From the IMG/VR virus record IMGVR_UViG_2563366854_000002, positions 1 to 25,932 of that record: a stretch of DNA of 25,932 bases, one strand, 5' to 3'. Below the pieces are notes generated by a model, which did no database searches, was not told where the DNA came from, and saw only the letters and a list, made by a program, of their open reading frames with translations. Below, in pieces: positions 8,177 to 22,768 of this stretch; within the stretch, counting starts at the first letter, position 1; each line of letters starts with the position of its first letter. Position numbers and translations under genes: made by a program. This DNA comes from a virus. Taxonomy: Duplodnaviria; Heunggongvirae; Uroviricota; Caudoviricetes.

Positions 8177-8860
8177 CTATGATTGAAGGGTGACTTTTTT
8201 TAACGTATCAAAAACGATTTTCGTAAACTCATTCTCATTTCTAACATCAATATAAGCAAGGCCGCTATTGGTGATCTTGAGCTTACCGGAATATTCTAAT
8301 GAATTAACAGAGCAAACAAGCCTGTCAATTCTTATTTTTTTACCCTCTAATTCTTCTTTATAATACTTCCTAAGATCATTGCTGCCAATTATTTGCATTT
8401 TAGCTGTGGCGTAATCAGAAACTCTAACCCTTGAAATATCAAGTTGTGTTAAATTGATATTTACACTTGAAGATATTTCATTAAGCCAGTCTATAGGGTT
8501 TATGTCAATTTCTTCCAAACTAACACCTAAGCCAAGATTTTTTACCAAAGCCTGCGAAAAAGGCTTTAAAGTTCTGGGTGGGTTAGTAATCTGCATTACA
8601 GGAAGAGAGTCTAAAGCCACGCTAAAATTTGTGGTGCGATATTCGATTCTTTCAACGGTAGTTTCGCTTCCGTCAAAGCTTAATATTTTATCATGATAAA
8701 CAATACGCTCGACAAAGCGACCATTTGCAAAATCATGGCGTATTTTATCAAAAATGAACCCTTTCCCTTTATCCTCTGTAAAAGAATCAAGAGAAAGACG
8801 TCTAACGGCTGTTTCAAACTCAAGCCGTATGTTTAACTTAAGCCATTTAACCTTTTTCAT
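8177..8860 (-). CDS. Cargo operon gene 3: hypothetical protein (227 aa), no family recognised
   Basis: ATG at 8858-8860 with GAGGTGA upstream; overlaps gene 2 by 14 nt; AT-rich. Confidence 0.75.
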   Translation of the reverse strand: MKKVKWLKLNIRLEFETAVRRLSLDSFTEDKGKGFIFDKIRHDFANGRFVERIVYHDKILSFDGSETTVERIEYRTTNFSVALDSLPVMQITNPPRTLKPFSQALVKNLGLGVSLEEIDINPIDWLNEISSSVNINLTQLDISRVRVSDYATAKMQIIGSNDLRKYYKEELEGKKIRIDRLVCSVNSLEYSGKLKITNSGLAYIDVRNENEFTKIVFDTLKKVTLQS

Positions 8861-9926
8861 CTTCGTTCACCTCTGATCCTATTATTATATTATAGGCATT
8901 TTCAGCGGCGGACTCAATTAATTCACTAATATGTTTTTTCTCTTGTGCCGTTGCCGCGCGAATGGTTACATTGAAACCGTCTTCTTTTTGATTGTTTATA
9001 CCTTTAATTTGATAGGCAAAGTCACAGCATTTTTCTGAGTCTTTGAAAAATGCTTCGACGTTGATTCTGTCTCCAATTCCACTTGTCGGCTTTGAAGACC
9101 ATGCAATACGCCCGATATAATAACCTTTCTCATGTAGTTGAGAAAATATAGCTGAACTATTTACCCCTTCACCATTAAGGACGGCTTTCTTAACAAATCC
9201 GGTATCAATAGTTTCTTCCTTGTCTTCATCCTCACTAGCATCAGTACTGCGATTTAATTCGACTTTTGTTACGTCATCAGTCTCATAACCGCGTAGACCA
9301 TTCATTAATTCCTGAAAAAACTGACTTCGCAATGTAGGATCAGTTATTGCTAGTAATGATATTTCGAAGCGCTCGATAGGTTCGGACTTGATTTTAGATA
9401 GCTCGTTTTGCAAGCTCTCAATAACTTTTTTTGCCTCGGGGTTTTGAGGCATACGTACTTCAACTTTGTCAGCTCCAGGGCGAAGTTCTATTATAACATT
9501 CCGCTTGTCGATCTGACGTAATGCAGTTTTAGACAGGTCTATTTCTTCATATTTGTATTCTACTGTAAGCGAGCCATCTTTTTTAGCTACAATATTCAGG
9601 CTTTGACCTTTACTAGGGGAGCATGTTTTTTTTAGTGCTTCAGCAGCACTTTTTAATTCGGCCTGATTTGTTGAGGTTTGGAAGCTCACACTAGTAGTGC
9701 TTTCCCTTGGGTCATATGTTTTGACCAGTTTTTTTATGTGTTCTAATTCATTAAATCCGTGAGGAAGTTTGGATATTTCCTCGATTAGTATTTCCTTGTC
9801 GAGTTCTGGTGATAAAAACACACCTCGATTCAACAATAATTCATGCAACTTTGCAGCGGTTATCCTTTTATGATGTAATGCATCATAAATATTTTTATCA
9901 GTTGCGAAATATAGTTTTTTAGCCAT
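8847..9926 (-). CDS. Cargo operon gene 2: hypothetical protein (359 aa) with an acidic linker between two regions, no family recognised
   Basis: ATG at 9924-9926 with GGAG upstream; TAATG stop/start overlap with gene 1; AT-rich. Confidence 0.75.
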   Translation of the reverse strand: MAKKLYFATDKNIYDALHHKRITAAKLHELLLNRGVFLSPELDKEILIEEISKLPHGFNELEHIKKLVKTYDPRESTTSVSFQTSTNQAELKSAAEALKKTCSPSKGQSLNIVAKKDGSLTVEYKYEEIDLSKTALRQIDKRNVIIELRPGADKVEVRMPQNPEAKKVIESLQNELSKIKSEPIERFEISLLAITDPTLRSQFFQELMNGLRGYETDDVTKVELNRSTDASEDEDKEETIDTGFVKKAVLNGEGVNSSAIFSQLHEKGYYIGRIAWSSKPTSGIGDRINVEAFFKDSEKCCDFAYQIKGINNQKEDGFNVTIRAATAQEKKHISELIESAAENAYNIIIGSEVNEDEKG

Positions 9927-10927
9927 TATCGTTGCTCCATGCCGATTTGTTCAAGATTATATTCAACAACAATTTTGTCTGTCTTGTCGAAGTCAATTTT
10001 AAGAAAAAGTCTTTCATCCTCGCCTAAGAGCCAGTCTGTGCTGTATTTCTTTTTCGCTCTTTCAAAATGATGAATGGCATTTTCATTTGGGTGAATGTGA
10101 CAATGGCGTAATACGATTGGTTTACCTTCGGTTAATATCTGATAAGTTGATAACATATCAAAGAAGTAAACGAATTCGTCTACTGAATCCCCCGGTTGAT
10201 TGTAATAAACAACATATCCCTCAGGGTTTTTATCCCTGAGCCAACTGAAAGCCTCATGCTTTATTATAATGTATGGTGATGTTAATAATTCAATTGTTGC
10301 AGGTGTTGTCTGATTAATAGGGTGCTTTATTCTTGTTAGGGAAAGATCTGGATAATAATATGTGAACTTATCAGGTTGAGGAAGTTTGCCTGAACCAATT
10401 AACTTAGTTATGTCAGAAGATATGTTTATCAAATCTGATATTTTATAAGGGTCAAGCAAATGTAGTTTGATGTTTGGAGGGCAATTTATAGATGAGTGAT
10501 CTAATTTTTTTGTAATATTCTCATAGAAGTCTTTATCATATAAATTATCATGGTTATATAAGAATAATAACCCTCTTACGTTATAACCTAAAGAATCATC
10601 ATGAACATATTTCAATCGCCATTCTTCACTGACATTTGCACACTCGGTAGCTAAAGCAAGCGATGTTAAAGCTCCCTCGACTATTTTTTTCCCAATAGTA
10701 CCTTCTGCATAGCTTTTGAGGTCTGTGTTGAGATAGACCATTTCCTCCTCATATGGATCTATGTAGAAAAATACAACATCGCTTGGATGTGTTTTCTTGG
10801 AATGAGCCTCTTGGCAACAATCCCAATTCATGTCCGCTCTAGCGGCACGATCCCATTTGAACACTGAGAAAATATCATCAGAAATCTTACCCGCGACTCG
10901 TTGTATAGCCGAAGTCTCTCCACCCAT
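9926..10927 (-). CDS. Cargo operon gene 1: hypothetical protein (333 aa), no family recognised; has an R-x4-H spacing (RHCHIH) near the C-terminus
   Basis: ATG at 10925-10927 with AAGGAG 7 nt upstream; first gene of a three-gene minus-strand operon; AT-rich. Confidence 0.75.
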   Translation of the reverse strand: MGGETSAIQRVAGKISDDIFSVFKWDRAARADMNWDCCQEAHSKKTHPSDVVFFYIDPYEEEMVYLNTDLKSYAEGTIGKKIVEGALTSLALATECANVSEEWRLKYVHDDSLGYNVRGLLFLYNHDNLYDKDFYENITKKLDHSSINCPPNIKLHLLDPYKISDLINISSDITKLIGSGKLPQPDKFTYYYPDLSLTRIKHPINQTTPATIELLTSPYIIIKHEAFSWLRDKNPEGYVVYYNQPGDSVDEFVYFFDMLSTYQILTEGKPIVLRHCHIHPNENAIHHFERAKKKYSTDWLLGEDERLFLKIDFDKTDKIVVEYNLEQIGMEQR

Positions 10928-11232: not shown

Positions 11233-11478
11233 ATGAAAATTTTTGCAATAGTCATTACATGTATGCTGGCATCGATTGCAGGATTATGGCTTTATATGGA
11301 TCCTGGTTTTGATTCTATTGTTGCATTTTTGGCTGCAGTTAGCGCTTTAGCTGGATTACTTATCACTACAAAAAATAAATATAATTCTATGAGCCAATCA
11401 GTTGGTGATAATTCAACTGCTGTCCAGGCTAGAGGTGATATTAAAATTGATTGTATAAATACAGGTGATAAAAAATAA
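11233..11478 (+). CDS. Small membrane protein (81 aa, two predicted TM helices) with a C-terminal GDNSTAVQARGD motif
   Basis: ATG with AGGAG 7 nt upstream; hydrophobic segments IFAIVITCMLASIAGLWLY and IVAFLAAVSALAGLLITT; AT-rich. Confidence 0.7.
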   Translation: MKIFAIVITCMLASIAGLWLYMDPGFDSIVAFLAAVSALAGLLITTKNKYNSMSQSVGDNSTAVQARGDIKIDCINTGDKK

Positions 11479-11487
11479 GGAGGATAT

Positions 11488-12345
11488 ATGTTTAGTGATA
11501 AGCAAAAGCAACAAATAGGTAATAATTCGTATGCAATTCAAGCTGGAAATAATGTAAATGTTTCAGGGATGTCGTTTTCCGAGGTTAGAGAACTATTCAA
11601 CATTCTCTTCGAAAATCAGTTTCCAAAATTGAAAGATGTTGCTTATGCTGCAGCTCAAGAGAATGCAAAAGATTTTGAAGAGCGTGTCGTTTCGGATTTA
11701 ACAAAAAACGTTGATAGATTGATTATTGATAAATTTTGCGATCCGGACGTTCAGGCTACATTGACTGAGGCATTAAAGTCATCAGCCAGGAAGGGAAAGA
11801 AAGCTAATATGGATGTGCTTTCTCAGTTGTTAGTTGAACGAGTCTCCAATAACAATGACGATTTTAGAGATATAGTTTTAACGGAGGCAGTTACCGTCGT
11901 TCCCAAGTTAACACAGCAACAAATATCACTTATAACGATAGTTTTTCTTCTCAAGAATGTTGAGATCAAAGACCCTGTTAATGGTGTTCGATTGGATTTG
12001 TTGGAGCACAATTTTAGAAACTTTGAATCAATGTATACTAATGGGTTTAATTTGTCTCAAGCCCAGATATATCACATTCAATATGCAGGGGCTTGTTCAT
12101 GGAATACTTTTTTAGGGATGGATGTTGAAGACTATTTTATGAGTAAATATCCGACTGATATAAAAGATAAGAGTGCATATATTTCAAATCTTAAGTTAGT
12201 TGCCCCTCATGTGTCTGCATTTTTAGAAAAATTTTCAAAGAGCAACTATCAAGGAATTGAATTAACAAGTGTAGGGCAAGCAATTGCTCTGGCTGTTTTT
12301 TCAAGATACGTAGGAAGATTGGATTATAATATTTGGTTAAAGTAG
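11488..12345 (+). CDS. Hypothetical protein (285 aa), no family recognised; N-terminal GNNSYAIQAGNN motif resembles the C-terminus of the upstream small protein
   Basis: ATG with AAGGAGG 6 nt upstream; 9 nt downstream of the 81-aa gene; AT-rich. Confidence 0.75.
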   Translation: MFSDKQKQQIGNNSYAIQAGNNVNVSGMSFSEVRELFNILFENQFPKLKDVAYAAAQENAKDFEERVVSDLTKNVDRLIIDKFCDPDVQATLTEALKSSARKGKKANMDVLSQLLVERVSNNNDDFRDIVLTEAVTVVPKLTQQQISLITIVFLLKNVEIKDPVNGVRLDLLEHNFRNFESMYTNGFNLSQAQIYHIQYAGACSWNTFLGMDVEDYFMSKYPTDIKDKSAYISNLKLVAPHVSAFLEKFSKSNYQGIELTSVGQAIALAVFSRYVGRLDYNIWLK

Positions 12346-12370
12346 GGCATTATTTGCCCTACTTTATTAT
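12341..12370. terminator. Hairpin (agtagggc-attattt-gccctact) plus ttattat, a bidirectional terminator between the 285-aa gene and portal Q
   Basis: Read directly; overlaps the stop codon of the 285-aa gene and lies 3' of the convergent Q gene. Confidence 0.5.
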
Positions 12371-13398
12371 AATTCATATGGTTGGAAAGAAATTATTTCA
12401 TCACTCAACCATTCATTAATTTCTTTAATTCGCTTTTGCAGCGGTATCAATTCGTTACGGACAAACACCTTACTCGCCTTTTCCACATCCCCAAATCCCC
12501 CAACATTACTCGGCATAATCCCCATCATCTGCGGCGGAACGCGGTGTGCAGCCATCATGTCGTCTCGGCTCACGTTCTTAATGTTCAGAAACTCATCCTT
12601 TGCCGCTACCTCTGACAGCGGGATTATCTGAATCCCGTCCTTTTTGCCGTTGGGTGAATACATAAACAGGTTGCGGAAGTTGCCCGGTCCTTTAGCGCTT
12701 TTCATGGCCTGGCGGATGTTGTTCACGTCCTCCTGGTTCTGCGCGGCGTCGGTCATATACATGATGAACCCTGCATGACTGCCATTGATGTAGTATTTAC
12801 GCCGGAACAGCGTAGCGGACTCGTTCAGCAAGGCGGACGGAATGGCGGACAGATATTCCGGCAGGCCGTAAATTTCCTGGTTCAGGTCCGGCTCCATCAG
12901 GTGAAAGATACTGCCTTTAGTGAACTCGTAGGGCTGCGTGGTTAGACCGTATTGCACAAACCAGTAGGTGTCTAAGTCGATCCCGCGGCGGGTGTATTTC
13001 GCCAGCGATGGCTCCAGCGACAGAATGCCGCCGAGCCGGTTCGTTCGTTTCTCCAGATAAGCGTTACCAAACACCAAATAGTCCTGCACAAAGCGGCTGA
13101 ATGCCTGCTGGCTCAGTAATGGATGTGGGATAAATGTACTGGTCAGAATGTTGCGTTTGACGGCAATCGGTGAGCTGTGATGTACGGCGGCGCGATAGGT
13201 GCGAGCCAGCCCATCAAAACTGACCGGCGGTTCATACCATCTGTCCATCTGTACGCATTCCACATAGTCCAGCAGCTCGCGGCGGTCCAGTACCGGGATC
13301 GGATCGCCAAAGCTGAAAGCCTCGGCACTTACGCCTGTGTTTTTCGGTGCCGTAGCTTCTGTTGGCGTTGTGCTGGTTAAGGCTTCGGGTTCACTCAT
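12367..13398 (-). CDS. Q: Phage portal protein (P2 gpQ-like), 343 aa from ATG at 13396-13398
   Basis: Size and position next to the terminase large subunit; TGATG overlap with the P stop; the track start at 13401 is TTG. Confidence 0.9.
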   Translation of the reverse strand: MSEPEALTSTTPTEATAPKNTGVSAEAFSFGDPIPVLDRRELLDYVECVQMDRWYEPPVSFDGLARTYRAAVHHSSPIAVKRNILTSTFIPHPLLSQQAFSRFVQDYLVFGNAYLEKRTNRLGGILSLEPSLAKYTRRGIDLDTYWFVQYGLTTQPYEFTKGSIFHLMEPDLNQEIYGLPEYLSAIPSALLNESATLFRRKYYINGSHAGFIMYMTDAAQNQEDVNNIRQAMKSAKGPGNFRNLFMYSPNGKKDGIQIIPLSEVAAKDEFLNIKNVSRDDMMAAHRVPPQMMGIMPSNVGGFGDVEKASKVFVRNELIPLQKRIKEINEWLSDEIISFQPYEL

Positions 13399-18635: not shown

Positions 18636-18851
18636 ATGACGCTTGAGCGAATCAGCGCCTTTATCACGTATTGCATCGCCGTCGTGCTGGCCTGGCTGGG
18701 CGATTTGTCCATCAAGGATGCCTCAACGCTGGGCGGCCTGATGATTGGTGTGCTGATGCTGGCTATCAACTGGTACTACAAACACAAAGCCTACCAGCTT
18801 CTGCGCGACGGGCAGATCTCGCGGGAGGATTATGAATCCATCAATCGTTAA
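18636..18851 (+). CDS. Holin (71 aa, membrane)
   Basis: Small protein with hydrophobic helices and a charged C-terminus, immediately upstream of the endolysin. Confidence 0.75.
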   Translation: MTLERISAFITYCIAVVLAWLGDLSIKDASTLGGLMIGVLMLAINWYYKHKAYQLLRDGQISREDYESINR

Positions 18852-20299: not shown

Positions 20300-20738
20300 A
20301 CTGCAGAAGGTGGACGACTGGCTTAGTGCCTTACTGGCGAATCTGGAACCAGTCGCAAGAAGCCGCATGATGCGCCAGCTGGCGCAGGAACTGCGCCGGA
20401 CACAGCAGCAGAATATCAGGATGCAGCGCAATCCAGATGGCAGCAGTTATGAACCGCGCAAGGTCACGGCGCGCAGTAAAAAAGGCCGCATCAAACGTCA
20501 GATGTTTGCAAAGCTGCGCACCACCAAATACCTGAAAACTGCCGCCAGCGCCGATTCTGCCAGCGTGCAGTTTGAAGGTAAGGTGCAGCGCATTGCCCGC
20601 GTTCACCATTATGGCCTGCGCGATCGCGTCAGCCGCAAAGGACCGGAAGTGCGTTACGCAGAGCGTCGTTTGTTGGGTCTTAATGGTGAGTCTTACGTTC
20701 TAACTCTTGATATATTGAATAGATTCCTTCTGTCTTGA
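20292..20738 (+). CDS. S: Tail completion protein S (P2 gpS-like, 148 aa) with a replaced C-terminal ~18 aa encoded by AT-rich inserted DNA
   Basis: Conserved gpS body (..IARVHHYGLRDRVSRKGPEVRYAERRLLGL) then an unrelated tail NGESYVLTLDILNRFLLS where the GC content drops. Confidence 0.8.
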   Translation: MAELQKVDDWLSALLANLEPVARSRMMRQLAQELRRTQQQNIRMQRNPDGSSYEPRKVTARSKKGRIKRQMFAKLRTTKYLKTAASADSASVQFEGKVQRIARVHHYGLRDRVSRKGPEVRYAERRLLGLNGESYVLTLDILNRFLLS

Positions 20739-21486
20739 ATTCACCATATGCCCAATGAATTGCATTTTTTTGTTCAGTCAGAATATATTTCCTAACTTTT
20801 TTAGAATAGTGAATGGTCAGTATAAAACCCAAAGAAATCCATAATAGAATAAATATGGTTGTTGGGGCAAAGGAATAGATAAAGAATTTGTCTTTAACGA
20901 AATTCTTGACTTCTTCATCAATGTAAGCATTCCCTTCATCAGTGGTTAGTAGTTTACAAAGAATTTCTTTATGTTCGATAGTTAATGATTTGTACTTCTC
21001 TGTACTGGCAGAGGATGACTCTTCGCAATCATCCTTTGATATTTCCCAATCAGGAGTGGTTAATATTGTAGCTGCAGTCGCCAGTTTTTTTGACATATAA
21101 AATGATTCACCGGATTTTATCCAATAAAGCAATGTGCTATTTGGTGGGGTTCTAATGGCTTGGATGAAAACTGGACCAAAAATATAAATTGCACACAAAA
21201 AAAGAAGTGAAAAGAGAACCGTGATTGATTTTTCAGCCCATGTGATAGTAGGCAGCCTTTTTAATGATATTCGTATAAGAAAAAAATTCAATATAAACGC
21301 AGGTATTCCTGATTTTTTCAAAATTACATCATGAGATTTTCTATATTTGAATAGTGCTCTTATAACTATCGTCACCAAAGTTATAACAGCTCCAATAATG
21401 GAAATCCATGCGGCAAGTGCCGCTGCCGGGGTGTTTAAAAATTCAGCATTAAATATATTAGAACTTATTGGATTCATAACACTCAT
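20680..21486 (-). CDS. Polytopic membrane protein (268 aa), unknown function, in an AT-rich insert between S and V
   Basis: ATG at 21484-21486 with AGGTGGA upstream; several hydrophobic helices; 19 G+C in the 60 nt of line 21181; opposite strand to the flanking late genes. Confidence 0.65.
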   Translation of the reverse strand: MSVMNPISSNIFNAEFLNTPAAALAAWISIIGAVITLVTIVIRALFKYRKSHDVILKKSGIPAFILNFFLIRISLKRLPTITWAEKSITVLFSLLFLCAIYIFGPVFIQAIRTPPNSTLLYWIKSGESFYMSKKLATAATILTTPDWEISKDDCEESSSASTEKYKSLTIEHKEILCKLLTTDEGNAYIDEEVKNFVKDKFFIYSFAPTTIFILLWISLGFILTIHYSKKVRKYILTEQKNAIHWAYGEFKTEGIYSIYQELERKTHH

Positions 21487-21589
21487 TTATCCACCTATTG
21501 GTTGTTTTTTATCCTTTTATCAATTTGTACCATCGATACCACAATTTGCAAGAAGTTATAAACAAGTTTTCAGCTGTCATCATATATCT

Positions 21590-22768
21590 ATGAACGCACA
21601 ACTAACCGAAATCATGCGCCTTATCACCAATCTGATCCGCATAGGTGTAGTCACCGAAGTGGACCGGGAAAACTGGCTTTGTCGGGTGAAAACGGGCGAC
21701 CTTGAAACCAACTGGATTAACTGGCTGACGCTGCGCGCGGGTATCACCACTGTGCTGGACAACCGCCTGATGGGGCTTACGCTGACGGATAACCGGGGCT
21801 TTGAAGCGGACCAGCTTGATCTGGAGCTGGACGACGCTGACGGAAAAATCGTGCTGCCGCGCCGTGGTGCGGTCATTACGCTGGCGCTGGGCTGGAAGGG
21901 GCAGCCGCTTTTCCCGAAAGGGGCATTCACGGTGGACGAGATTGAACACACTGGCGCACCGGACCGCCTGACTATCCGGGCGCGAAGCGCTGATTTTCGG
22001 GAAACGCTGAATACCCGTCGTGAAAAATCGTGGCACAAGACCACGGTCGGGGAAGTGGTGAAGGAAATAGCTGCGCGTCACAAACTGAAGATGGCACTGG
22101 GTAAAGACCTGTCGGATAAACCCGTGGAGCATATAGACCAGACTAATGAGAGTGACGGCAGTTTTTTGATGCGGCTGGCGCGCCAGTACGGTGCCATTGC
22201 ATCGGTGAAAAATGGCAATCTGTTATTCATCCGGCAGGGACAGGGCAAAAGCGCCAGCGGTAAACCACTGCCGGTGATCACTATCATACGTAAGGACGGC
22301 GACAGTCACCGCTTTACCCTGGCAGATCGCGGAGCTTACACGGGGGTAATTGCCAGCTGGTTGCATACCCGCGAACCCGCGAAGAAAGAAAGCACTACGG
22401 TGAAGCGTAAGCGCAGGACTAAGAAGCAGAAGAAAGAGCCGGAAGCGAAGCAGGGCGATTACCTGGTGGGGACGGATGAAAACGTGCTGGTACTTAATCG
22501 CACTTATGCCAACCGGAGCAACGCCGAACGAGCGGCAAAAATGCAGTGGGAACGCCTGCAACGCGGCGTTGCGTCATTCTCGCTACAACTGGCGGAAGGG
22601 CGGGCAGATCTCTACACGGAAATGCCTGTGAAGGTCAGTGGTTTTAAACAGCCGATAGATGATGCGGAATGGACTATTACCACCCTGACGCATACTGTCA
22701 GCCCGGATAACGGTTTTACGACCAGTCTGGAGCTTGAAGTGAAGATTGATGATTTCGAAATGGAATGA
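21590..22768 (+). CDS. Chimeric in-frame ORF: N-terminal ~48 aa of baseplate spike V fused to late control/tail protein D (392 aa)
   Basis: The first ~48 aa (MNAQLTEIMRLITNLIRIGVVTEVDRENWLCRVKTGDLETNWINWLTLRAG) match the gpV N-terminus pattern; the rest (LTLTDNRGFEADQLDLELDD...FTTSLELEVKIDDFEME) matches gpD; no W, J, I, H, G, F, E, T or U genes are present. Confidence 0.8.
   Translation: MNAQLTEIMRLITNLIRIGVVTEVDRENWLCRVKTGDLETNWINWLTLRAGITTVLDNRLMGLTLTDNRGFEADQLDLELDDADGKIVLPRRGAVITLALGWKGQPLFPKGAFTVDEIEHTGAPDRLTIRARSADFRETLNTRREKSWHKTTVGEVVKEIAARHKLKMALGKDLSDKPVEHIDQTNESDGSFLMRLARQYGAIASVKNGNLLFIRQGQGKSASGKPLPVITIIRKDGDSHRFTLADRGAYTGVIASWLHTREPAKKESTTVKRKRRTKKQKKEPEAKQGDYLVGTDENVLVLNRTYANRSNAERAAKMQWERLQRGVASFSLQLAEGRADLYTEMPVKVSGFKQPIDDAEWTITTLTHTVSPDNGFTTSLELEVKIDDFEME

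Follow-up and report, generated by a model that had tools for sequence, protein, structure and literature searches.

A DUF6216 membrane-protein gene in the orf30 slot of P2-like prophages is repeatedly retained after prophage decay

Introduction

P2-like phages hold horizontally acquired genes at three loci, the TO region, Z/fun and orf30 (PMC3091744). The orf30 locus is the slot between the tail-completion gene S and the baseplate gene V, and of the three classical cargo loci it has been studied least; recent hotspot surveys have centred on the gpA–portal and Z/fun loci, and the S–V slot is not mentioned among the hotspots mined by Rousset et al. 2022 (PMC9122126). In P2, the slot contains a nonessential gene, transcribed opposite to S and V, that encodes Orf30 (NP_046770, PHROG 2407), and phage R18C has yet another open reading frame (ORF) at the same locus (PMC6823313). 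The subject of this study is the AT-rich gene that occupies the S–V slot in a 25,932-nucleotide stretch of viral DNA (IMG/VR record IMGVR_UViG_2563366854_000002), which is referred to below as the window. The gene encodes a membrane protein of the Pfam family DUF6216, called here the cargo protein.

Several described systems resemble the cargo gene in part. The P2 cargo genes old, tin and Z/fun and the genes of the P2/P4 defence hotspots are likewise AT-rich, nonessential and placed at a fixed variable locus, and like the cargo gene they are probably expressed from the prophage. The resemblance to the defence hotspots extends to a defence-type domain, TIR, which is found in the S–V slot of other strains. 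The cargo protein itself corresponds to no PADLOC model, and its anti-phage role is putative. The exclusion proteins Imm of T4, SieA of P22 and gp15 of HK97 are, like the cargo protein with its predicted periplasmic part, small polytopic inner-membrane proteins of phages or prophages. By analogy with them, the cargo protein would be expected to act on the transfer of DNA from incoming phages. Within DUF6216, WP_000115390 of Escherichia coli B (REL606/BL21) is 99% identical to the cargo protein and is encoded in the same S–V cassette at the same ybjL site. The prototype of the Pfam family is of the Winslowiella type and has an extra loop.

The S–V slot of the window holds a DUF6216 cassette

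The window originates from an E. coli P2-like (Peduovirus-type) prophage that adjoins ybjL. The 1.7 kb used as a query, positions 20300–22000, is 100% identical to E. coli strain HSP425. The late genes of the window are arranged in the order X, holin, lysozyme, LysB/C, R, S, cargo cassette, a V/D hybrid, ogr and the host gene ybjL. The guanine plus cytosine (GC) content decreases from 0.55–0.60 to 0.30–0.38 across approximately 20690–21590, and the cassette is the 898-bp stretch of the window with the lowest GC content (0.327 versus 0.485 overall), matched only by the cargo of the gpA–portal region. An earlier interpretation of the DNA from its letters alone, the sequence-only reading, had reported this sharp decrease at 20690–21589, and the count that it gave for line 21181–21240, 19 G+C among 60 letters, is exact. 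It had also proposed comparing the S–V junction with that of a related prophage, and this comparison delimits the insert: relative to the insert-free prophage CP019275 (L002), the borders are at 20689/20690 and 21587/21588, and 898 bp stand in place of 115 bp.

The cassette contains a single gene on the minus strand, preceded by a Shine–Dalgarno sequence, as had been described (Table 1). The product matches DUF6216 (PF19723) with a score of 45.6 bits (E 7e-12), above the cut-off of 27.3. Only part of the protein is matched, residues 72–237 being aligned to positions 114–265 of the 270-position profile. The RefSeq name is also DUF6216 family protein. With flanks that are S and V' according to Pfam, an occupancy of the slot that varies among related phages, and a GC content of 33% between flanks of 55–60%, the block is almost certainly DUF6216-family cargo of the orf30 slot. 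The sequence-only reading had called it an acquired moron at a non-canonical site. Horizontal acquisition stands; however, the site is the classical variable orf30 locus, named as such in PMC3091744, where P2 holds its nonessential 261-residue Orf30 on the same strand. An insertion sequence or transposon is rejected as the origin of the block, which has neither repeats nor a transposase and whose borders are recombination points common to other cassettes.

The cargo gene is found alone where P2 prophages have decayed

Several bacterial genera retain the gene where little or nothing else of a P2-like prophage is left. In Citrobacter sedlakii, ybjL and rcdA are 1.5 kb apart, and the cargo gene is all that can be recognized from P2 between them. 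A 35% identical copy stands alone at the same site in Franconibacter, where its composition has been partly ameliorated to 45% GC; full-length members of 243 residues are named from F. pulveris, F. daqui and Franconibacter sp. At this site, metagenomic contigs have a 32% identical copy that stands almost by itself. The gene is also intact, accompanied by pieces of V, S, R, ogr, CI or gpA, in C. youngae, Scandinavium, a metagenome-assembled genome of Enterobacteriaceae, Serratia rubidaea and Klebsiella aerogenes. The ratio of nonsynonymous to synonymous substitution rates (dN/dS) is 0.12–0.33 in all computable pairs. Thus the gene is under purifying selection, which disposes of the concern raised with the initial description that the ORF might not be conserved.

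The prophage of the window follows the same trend. Its tail genes are deleted and its portal gene is broken, while the DUF6216 gene and the three-gene defence system 3HP in the gpA–portal hotspot are intact. Because intact genes under selection are found inside decayed or erased P2 prophages of several genera, the cargo gene is likely to benefit the host independently of the phage.

Cargo of the slot is exchanged faster than the phage backbone diverges

Of 5426 complete E. coli genomes, 111 carry the cassette, always at full length. E. coli B REL606 and the BL21 family carry it, 99.4% identical, at the same ybjL site. The occupancy of the slot has been estimated from a ranked sample of E. coli matches, of which 787 records have at least 80% coverage: approximately 70% of the related S–V junctions are empty, 14% contain DUF6216 (111 of 787), and approximately 16% contain other cargo. 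The gene is therefore not a conserved core gene, which the sequence-only reading had named as the finding that would speak against an acquired insert. The other cargos in E. coli are all AT-rich single genes with 30–36% GC, each with its own S tail (Table 1). The DUF6216 gene is also found on 18 IMG/VR contigs; in most of them it lies between S and V, and in all of them it is read in the direction opposite to the late genes.

Intact-looking phages from other genera carry divergent DUF6216 alleles in the same slot. The Buttiauxella allele is 47% identical to the cargo protein, while R, S and V are 86–94% identical, and the Tatumella allele, 296 residues long, is 20% identical. In one metagenome, the alleles of two near-identical phage backbones share 79% and 50% identity with the window protein. 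Therefore, the cargo is swapped faster than the backbone diverges.

Two E. coli records of approximately 55 kb that are classed as plasmids (NZ_CP148585.1 and NZ_CP148400.1) carry the cassette at 100% identity and may be P2-like elements that are maintained or assembled extrachromosomally. A 22% identical DUF6216 homologue of Pectobacterium brasiliense is located outside the P2 context, in an AT-rich mobile element with MobA/MobL and TraD (L021, 1–1159 and 6001–6711). A SIR2 protein with a match to the PADLOC candidate PDC-S25 is encoded some 5 kb away.

The cargo protein and its relationship to P2 Orf30

Hydropathy analysis of the cargo protein identifies three strongly hydrophobic segments, corresponding to transmembrane (TM) helices at approximately residues 21–43, 86–108 and 203–225, and an acidic central region (residues 130–200), in agreement with the earlier description of a polytopic membrane protein with a charged middle. 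The loop after TM1 (residues 44–62) and the C-terminal tail are rich in lysine and arginine, and the N-terminus has no positive charge. Because of these charges, the positive-inside rule predicts a topology with the N-terminus outside and the C-terminus inside, in which residues ~109–200 would be periplasmic and the tail, residues 226–268, cytoplasmic.

DUF6216 proteins are approximately 225–296 residues long and have three TM helices, with two invariant cysteines and a conserved phenylalanine and tryptophan in the TM2–TM3 loop. When 39 diverse members, 15–75% identical to the window protein, are aligned, C154 and C177 are the sole invariant residues, and F129 and W147 are at least 90% conserved. 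Because the cysteines are invariant in the family, they probably form a periplasmic disulfide. The AlphaFold2 (AF2) model of the cargo protein has a predicted local distance difference test score of 76.9, which exceeds 85 for most of residues 80–240 and decreases to 68–73 at residues 151–170. The order of elements in the model is TM2, four β-strands, two short cysteine-bearing helices, and a long helix that becomes TM3. The part between the membrane helices would thus be a periplasmic domain of about 90 residues, made of the four strands and two short helices and probably held together by the C154–C177 disulfide. The family is small: a profile search recovers 50 of 1.84 billion cluster representatives, and all its named members belong to Enterobacterales. 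Only the P2-borne enterobacterial clade has a C-terminal extension of 20 residues.

A match of TM1 to Phage_holin_2_3 (PF16080) is below the threshold, with 14.5 bits against a cut-off of 28.8 and an E value of 0.037. The identification of the cargo protein as a holin or antiholin is rejected, since this match spans a single helix and the true HP1-type holin is encoded elsewhere in the prophage.

The resemblance of the cargo protein to P2 Orf30 goes beyond the shared slot and strand. The two proteins are of similar size, 261 residues in Orf30 and 268 in the cargo protein, and their genes have GC contents of 34% and 33%. Each has three TM helices and carries a pair of cysteines in its TM2–TM3 loop, and their AF2 models have the same succession of TM2, four β-strands, a short helix with a cysteine, a second cysteine-bearing helix, and a long helix leading into TM3. 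However, the cytoplasmic loop between TM1 and TM2 has approximately 77 residues in Orf30 and 42 in the cargo protein, the cysteines are spaced by 17 rather than 23 residues, and Orf30 lacks the GEFKxEGIYxIYQELER tail of the cargo protein.

No similarity between the two proteins is detected by BLASTP, tblastn, Pfam or at the level of PHROGs. A comparison of the single sequence of the Pfam-prototype member with Orf30 is uninformative, and an hhalign comparison of Orf30 with a shallow alignment is not significant. With the alignment of diverse DUF6216 members, hhalign yields a score of 34.3 over the region from TM2 to TM3 (E 2.4e-4, with a probability of only 43%). Sixty block-shuffled controls that preserve local composition score 14.2 ± 2.6 and reach 22 at most, and reversed controls score 14–16, which places Orf30 about 7.7 standard deviations above the shuffled sequences. 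The profile–profile score, together with the same slot, strand and size, indicates that the cargo protein is probably a remote homologue of Orf30.

The cassette brings its own gpS tail

The tail-completion protein gpS enters the AT-rich DNA at approximately codon 133, and its last ~16 codons (20690–20738) are encoded by the cassette. The sequence-only reading had described an unrelated 18-residue tail that replaced the C-terminus of S. The reading frame does run into AT-rich DNA; however, the tail comprises about 16 codons and is not unrelated. The length of S is unchanged at 148 residues and the pattern of the tail is kept, ...LTLDILNRFLLS in the window as against ...MTRDMILQWLAG, and ...MIEEIILAHLER in P2. 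The variant tail is conserved between cassettes whose cargo alleles share only 47–74% identity. The same cassette is present in the apparently complete prophage Ecol_881 and in viral contigs with complete late-gene clusters. Since Pfam aligns gpS almost to the end of the profile and the cassette occurs in apparently complete prophages, the variant tail is presumably functional. Truncation or inactivation of S is rejected because of the same length, the conserved pattern, and the presence of the cassette in such prophages.

The genes for gpS and the cargo protein converge and overlap by 59 bp. The overlap contains the last 19 sense codons and the stop codon of S, antisense to the last 18 sense codons and the stop codon of the cargo gene. 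A terminator scan finds no terminator between the two convergent genes. The Serratia, Buttiauxella and Tatumella cassettes (L008, L015 and L022) share this overlap, and the tail of the cargo gene remains conserved even in loci without S.

The cassette almost certainly moves between phages by recombination anchored at the RRLLG motif of S and at the start codon of V. The exchangeable unit thus extends from the RRLLG motif to the V ATG and brings its own S C-terminus and its own presumed site for the Ogr-dependent activation of the V promoter, PV.

Candidate expression signals in the cassette

A candidate σ70 promoter of the cargo gene is located upstream of the Shine–Dalgarno sequence (Table 1). 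In nine aligned loci from seven genera, including loci without V, CTTG(C/A)AA and TGGTACAA are invariant and the spacer between them is variable, which constitutes a phylogenetic footprint. The core GG(A/T)G of the Shine–Dalgarno sequence is also kept in nine aligned loci.

A TGT-N12-ACA motif, the presumed Ogr activator site of PV, lies within the cassette about 55 bp upstream of the V ATG and overlaps the candidate cargo promoter. The motif is present at the same distance in five other loci with minus-strand cargo (L022 and L025–L028) and in the insert-free junction. P2 has only an imperfect match at its own S–V junction, and its record annotates a V-promoter activator site at the equivalent place. 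No TGT-N12-ACA motif is identified in the cassette with the TIR-domain gene (L024). Of the six remnants without intact V, four have mutations in the TGT half of the motif, while the half that coincides with the −10 element is invariant. Since the motif falls between the candidate −35 and −10 elements and partly on them, Ogr bound there late in the lytic cycle could turn off the cargo gene.

Other features of the window prophage

The gene to the right of the cassette is not V, as had been assumed, but an in-frame fusion of V and D left by a deletion, as indicated by Pfam and blastn. The first ~50 codons of V are joined to gpD from approximately codon 24. In a blastn comparison with the complete prophage L010, the homology to V stops at 21741 and that to gpD begins at 21739, leaving a 3-bp overlap at the junction (21739–21741). 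The deletion behind this scar is 10.36 kb long and has removed V(3')-W-J-I-H-G-FI-FII-E-T-U-D(5'). The RefSeq label of the fused ORF is merely 'phage late control D family protein'. In an identical record, RefSeq annotates the portal gene encoding gpQ (~12367–13398, minus strand) as a pseudogene with an internal stop. The prophage is defective because of the V–D deletion and the internal stop in the portal gene.

The gpA–portal (TO) hotspot of the window contains the three AT-rich genes that match PADLOC Hp3, Hp2 and Hp1. From these full-length matches they are taken to be the three-hypothetical-protein P2-hotspot system that is reported to protect against P1 (Rousset et al. 2022, PMC9122126), intact in a decaying prophage. 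In the prophage of REL606, the TO hotspot holds a retron with a St85-family effector and a reverse transcriptase (L001, 13156–15204) instead of this system. The deletions in the E. coli B prophage, from the capsid to the lysozyme and from the tail sheath to D, differ from those of the window. The two cargo slots assort independently, since the E. coli B prophage shares the S–V cassette with the window but not the TO cargo.

Table 1 Features of the window and of related cassettes. Positions are those of the window unless another locus is named.
Feature	Position	Strand	Basis or remark
AT-rich cargo cassette, 898 bp, 32.7% GC	20690..21587		Alignment with insert-free relative
Cargo gene, 268-residue DUF6216-family inner-membrane protein	20680..21486	−	ORF; Pfam PF19723
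Shine–Dalgarno sequence AGGTGG of cargo gene	21491..21496	−	Seen in sequence, four bases before ATG
Candidate σ70 promoter of cargo gene	21523..21551	−	−35 TTGCAA 21551–21546; −10 TACAAAT 21529–21523
TGT-N12-ACA motif TGTACCATCGATACCACA, presumed Ogr activator site of PV	21526..21543	+	Motif match
gpS, tail completion, 148 residues	20292..20738	+	Pfam Phage_tail_S, E 9e-40, aligned to profile position 147/148
Convergent S/cargo overlap, 59 bp	20680..20738		Coordinates of both ORFs
S tail, window			GLNGESYVLTLDILNRFLLS
S tail, Buttiauxella cassette			GINKESYDLTLDILHRYLLS
S tail, Serratia cassette			GVNKDSIDLTLDILHRYLLS
S tail, insert-free relative			GVNDDVEAMTRDMILQWLAG
S tail, P2			GFTGEDVQMIEEIILAHLER
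V'-'D in-frame fusion ORF	21590..22768	+	Pfam Phage_base_V residues 17–52, Phage_GPD residues 93–371; outside cassette
HP1-type holin of window prophage	18636–18851		
Three AT-rich genes matching PADLOC Hp3, Hp2, Hp1	8177–10927	−	gpA–portal (TO) hotspot; full length, E 2e-157 to 3e-248
81-residue ORF	11233–11478	+	Beside 3HP genes; no PADLOC match
285-residue LPO_1073/Vpar_1526 family protein	11488–12345	+	Beside 3HP genes; no PADLOC match
Other slot cargo: TIR-domain protein	L024 860–1675 (E. coli 23CRST001)	+	
Other slot cargos: 271-residue HNH-like protein; 250-residue two-TM protein; 288-residue and 176-residue proteins without assignment (both soluble)	L025–L028	−	

Discussion

The reading favoured here is that the cargo gene mediates a lysogenic conversion of the cell envelope that excludes a restricted set of incoming phages, and its probability is roughly 0.4. 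That the protein has an anti-phage function of whatever kind is a tentative proposition, somewhat short of an even chance, and entry exclusion in particular is doubtful. In the lysogen, the gene would be read from its own candidate σ70 promoter, opposite to the late operons. Since purifying selection keeps the gene intact in decayed prophages, its product would act for the lysogen and not for the virion. The periplasmic domain would hinder the entry of genomes from a restricted set of incoming phages or tail-like particles, which is superinfection exclusion, and the conserved cytoplasmic loop and tail would anchor the protein or couple it to a partner in the inner membrane. Exclusion is favoured because of the company that the gene keeps, namely the TIR protein in the same slot of other prophages, the 3HP system in the same prophage, and the SIR2 candidate near a distant homologue, and because of the fast turnover of alleles and the predicted periplasmic domain.

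A number of observations weigh against this reading. One is that E. coli B carries an allele 99% identical to that of the window. E. coli B is the classical host of phages T1–T7, and REL606 is sensitive to lambda. Therefore, any exclusion must be narrow, or the gene silent. In contrast to what Imm would confer, E. coli B is sensitive to T4 despite its DUF6216 allele. The distribution of conserved positions is a second point: the mean pairwise identity is 81% in the predicted cytoplasmic tail, 77% in the periplasmic N-terminus, and 58–65% in the periplasmic domain, a pattern that suits a partner in the cytoplasm no less than a target in the periplasm. The database searches give no support either. 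The cargo protein has no significant structural or sequence relative in the PDB or BFVD, none of the 5027 PADLOC models matches it at E ≤ 1, and its only matches among PHROGs are sub-threshold and limited to single helices. No sequence or fold similarity to characterized exclusion proteins is found in PHROGs, PADLOC, BFVD or the PDB, and P2 Orf30 has no PADLOC match either. Literature searches yield no functional account of DUF6216/PF19723 or of orf30, and tblastn searches of 50,697 deposited phage genomes with the window protein and two distant relatives find no member of the family.

Expression in the lysogen is a further point of doubt. The promoter of the cargo gene is a candidate defined by a phylogenetic footprint rather than a mapped start site, and it is not called in a strict scan for consensus promoters. 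DNA with 33% GC is a typical target of H-NS. The cargo gene is likely to be silenced by this protein, and because of its AT-rich composition its expression in the lysogen is not assured. Finally, the loci in which the gene survives were found through intact proteins, which introduces an ascertainment bias, and truncated copies occur (P0032, P0042 and P0087–P0090). For both reasons, retention after decay of the prophage is frequent but not universal.

The alternative that survives best, although it is unlikely, is a contribution to host fitness unrelated to phages, such as immunity to a pore-forming bacteriocin or tailocin, modulation of envelope stress or transport, or colonization. It accounts for the domestication of the gene, which stands alone in the chromosomes of several genera, with partial amelioration of its GC content in Franconibacter, and is under purifying selection. 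The lack of similarity to known defence proteins and the continued sensitivity of the carrier E. coli B to classical phages point the same way. Colicin immunity proteins, moreover, are usually small polytopic inner-membrane proteins. However, the gene is found overwhelmingly on P2-like phages, in a slot that elsewhere holds a TIR protein, and it is not linked to a bacteriocin or toxin gene. The turnover of alleles between near-identical backbones is more typical of genes involved in conflict.

An abortive-infection effector is improbable. Such a protein would recognize infection by damage to the envelope or by a phage protein that enters the cell; it would then permeabilize the inner membrane with its helices, so that the infected cell dies before phages are released. 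Many defence effectors are small TM proteins, and a single membrane protein in a prophage cargo slot with conserved TM helices and a conserved cytoplasmic tail would suit this role, as would the weak, sub-threshold resemblance of TM1 to a holin. However, this resemblance is limited to one helix, PADLOC gives no match, and the protein has neither a recognizable sensor or enzymatic domain nor a partner gene. A latent toxin is also less likely to be kept for long as a solitary gene without a regulator.

It is very improbable that the cargo protein is an accessory of the phage life cycle that tunes the timing of lysis, the assembly of the tail or baseplate, or the late transcription of its carrier. 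The location of the gene between the block of lysis genes, R and S and the V operon, its 3' overlap with S, the Ogr motif within its promoter region and the membrane character that it shares with holins and antiholins are what such an accessory would have. By contrast, the gene is intact where all lysis and tail genes are gone, it is read opposite to the late operons, the slot is empty in approximately 70% of related prophages, and P2 Orf30 is annotated as nonessential. Hardly credible is a scenario that extends the sequence-only reading, in which the block was inserted recently at an unusual site, ruined the end of S and thereby helped to inactivate the prophage. S does read into foreign AT-rich DNA and the prophage is defective, but the site is the canonical orf30 slot, which refutes that part of the scenario, the length and pattern of the S tail are kept and conserved across cassettes, apparently complete prophages carry the cassette, as do viral contigs whose late-gene clusters are complete, and the actual defects are the V–D deletion and the stop in the portal gene.

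The variability of the locus, the annotation of the DUF family and the presence of the gene in common laboratory strains are already known. What goes beyond routine is the pattern of repeated domestication and the probable link to P2 orf30. The S–V slot is shown to hold diverse AT-rich single-gene cargos, among which the DUF6216 gene repeatedly outlives its prophage; the gene is present in E. coli B, REL606 and BL21(DE3). A broader proposal, which is speculative and has well under an even chance of being right, is that DUF6216 and P2 Orf30 form one fast-evolving superfamily of single-gene protective proteins that act at the envelope, reside in the S–V slot and are advantageous enough for hosts of several genera to retain them as fixed genes of the chromosome once the prophage is erased; they would provide a narrow-spectrum block to the entry of phage or tailocin genomes or another immunity function. 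If this is the case, a function would be assigned to orf30 of P2 and to a gene that is present in every culture of BL21 and REL606. Exclusion by the cargo protein, if true, would define a new family of single-gene envelope immunity and explain an old orphan gene; if it is not true, the retention of the gene would indicate a different kind of lysogenic conversion.

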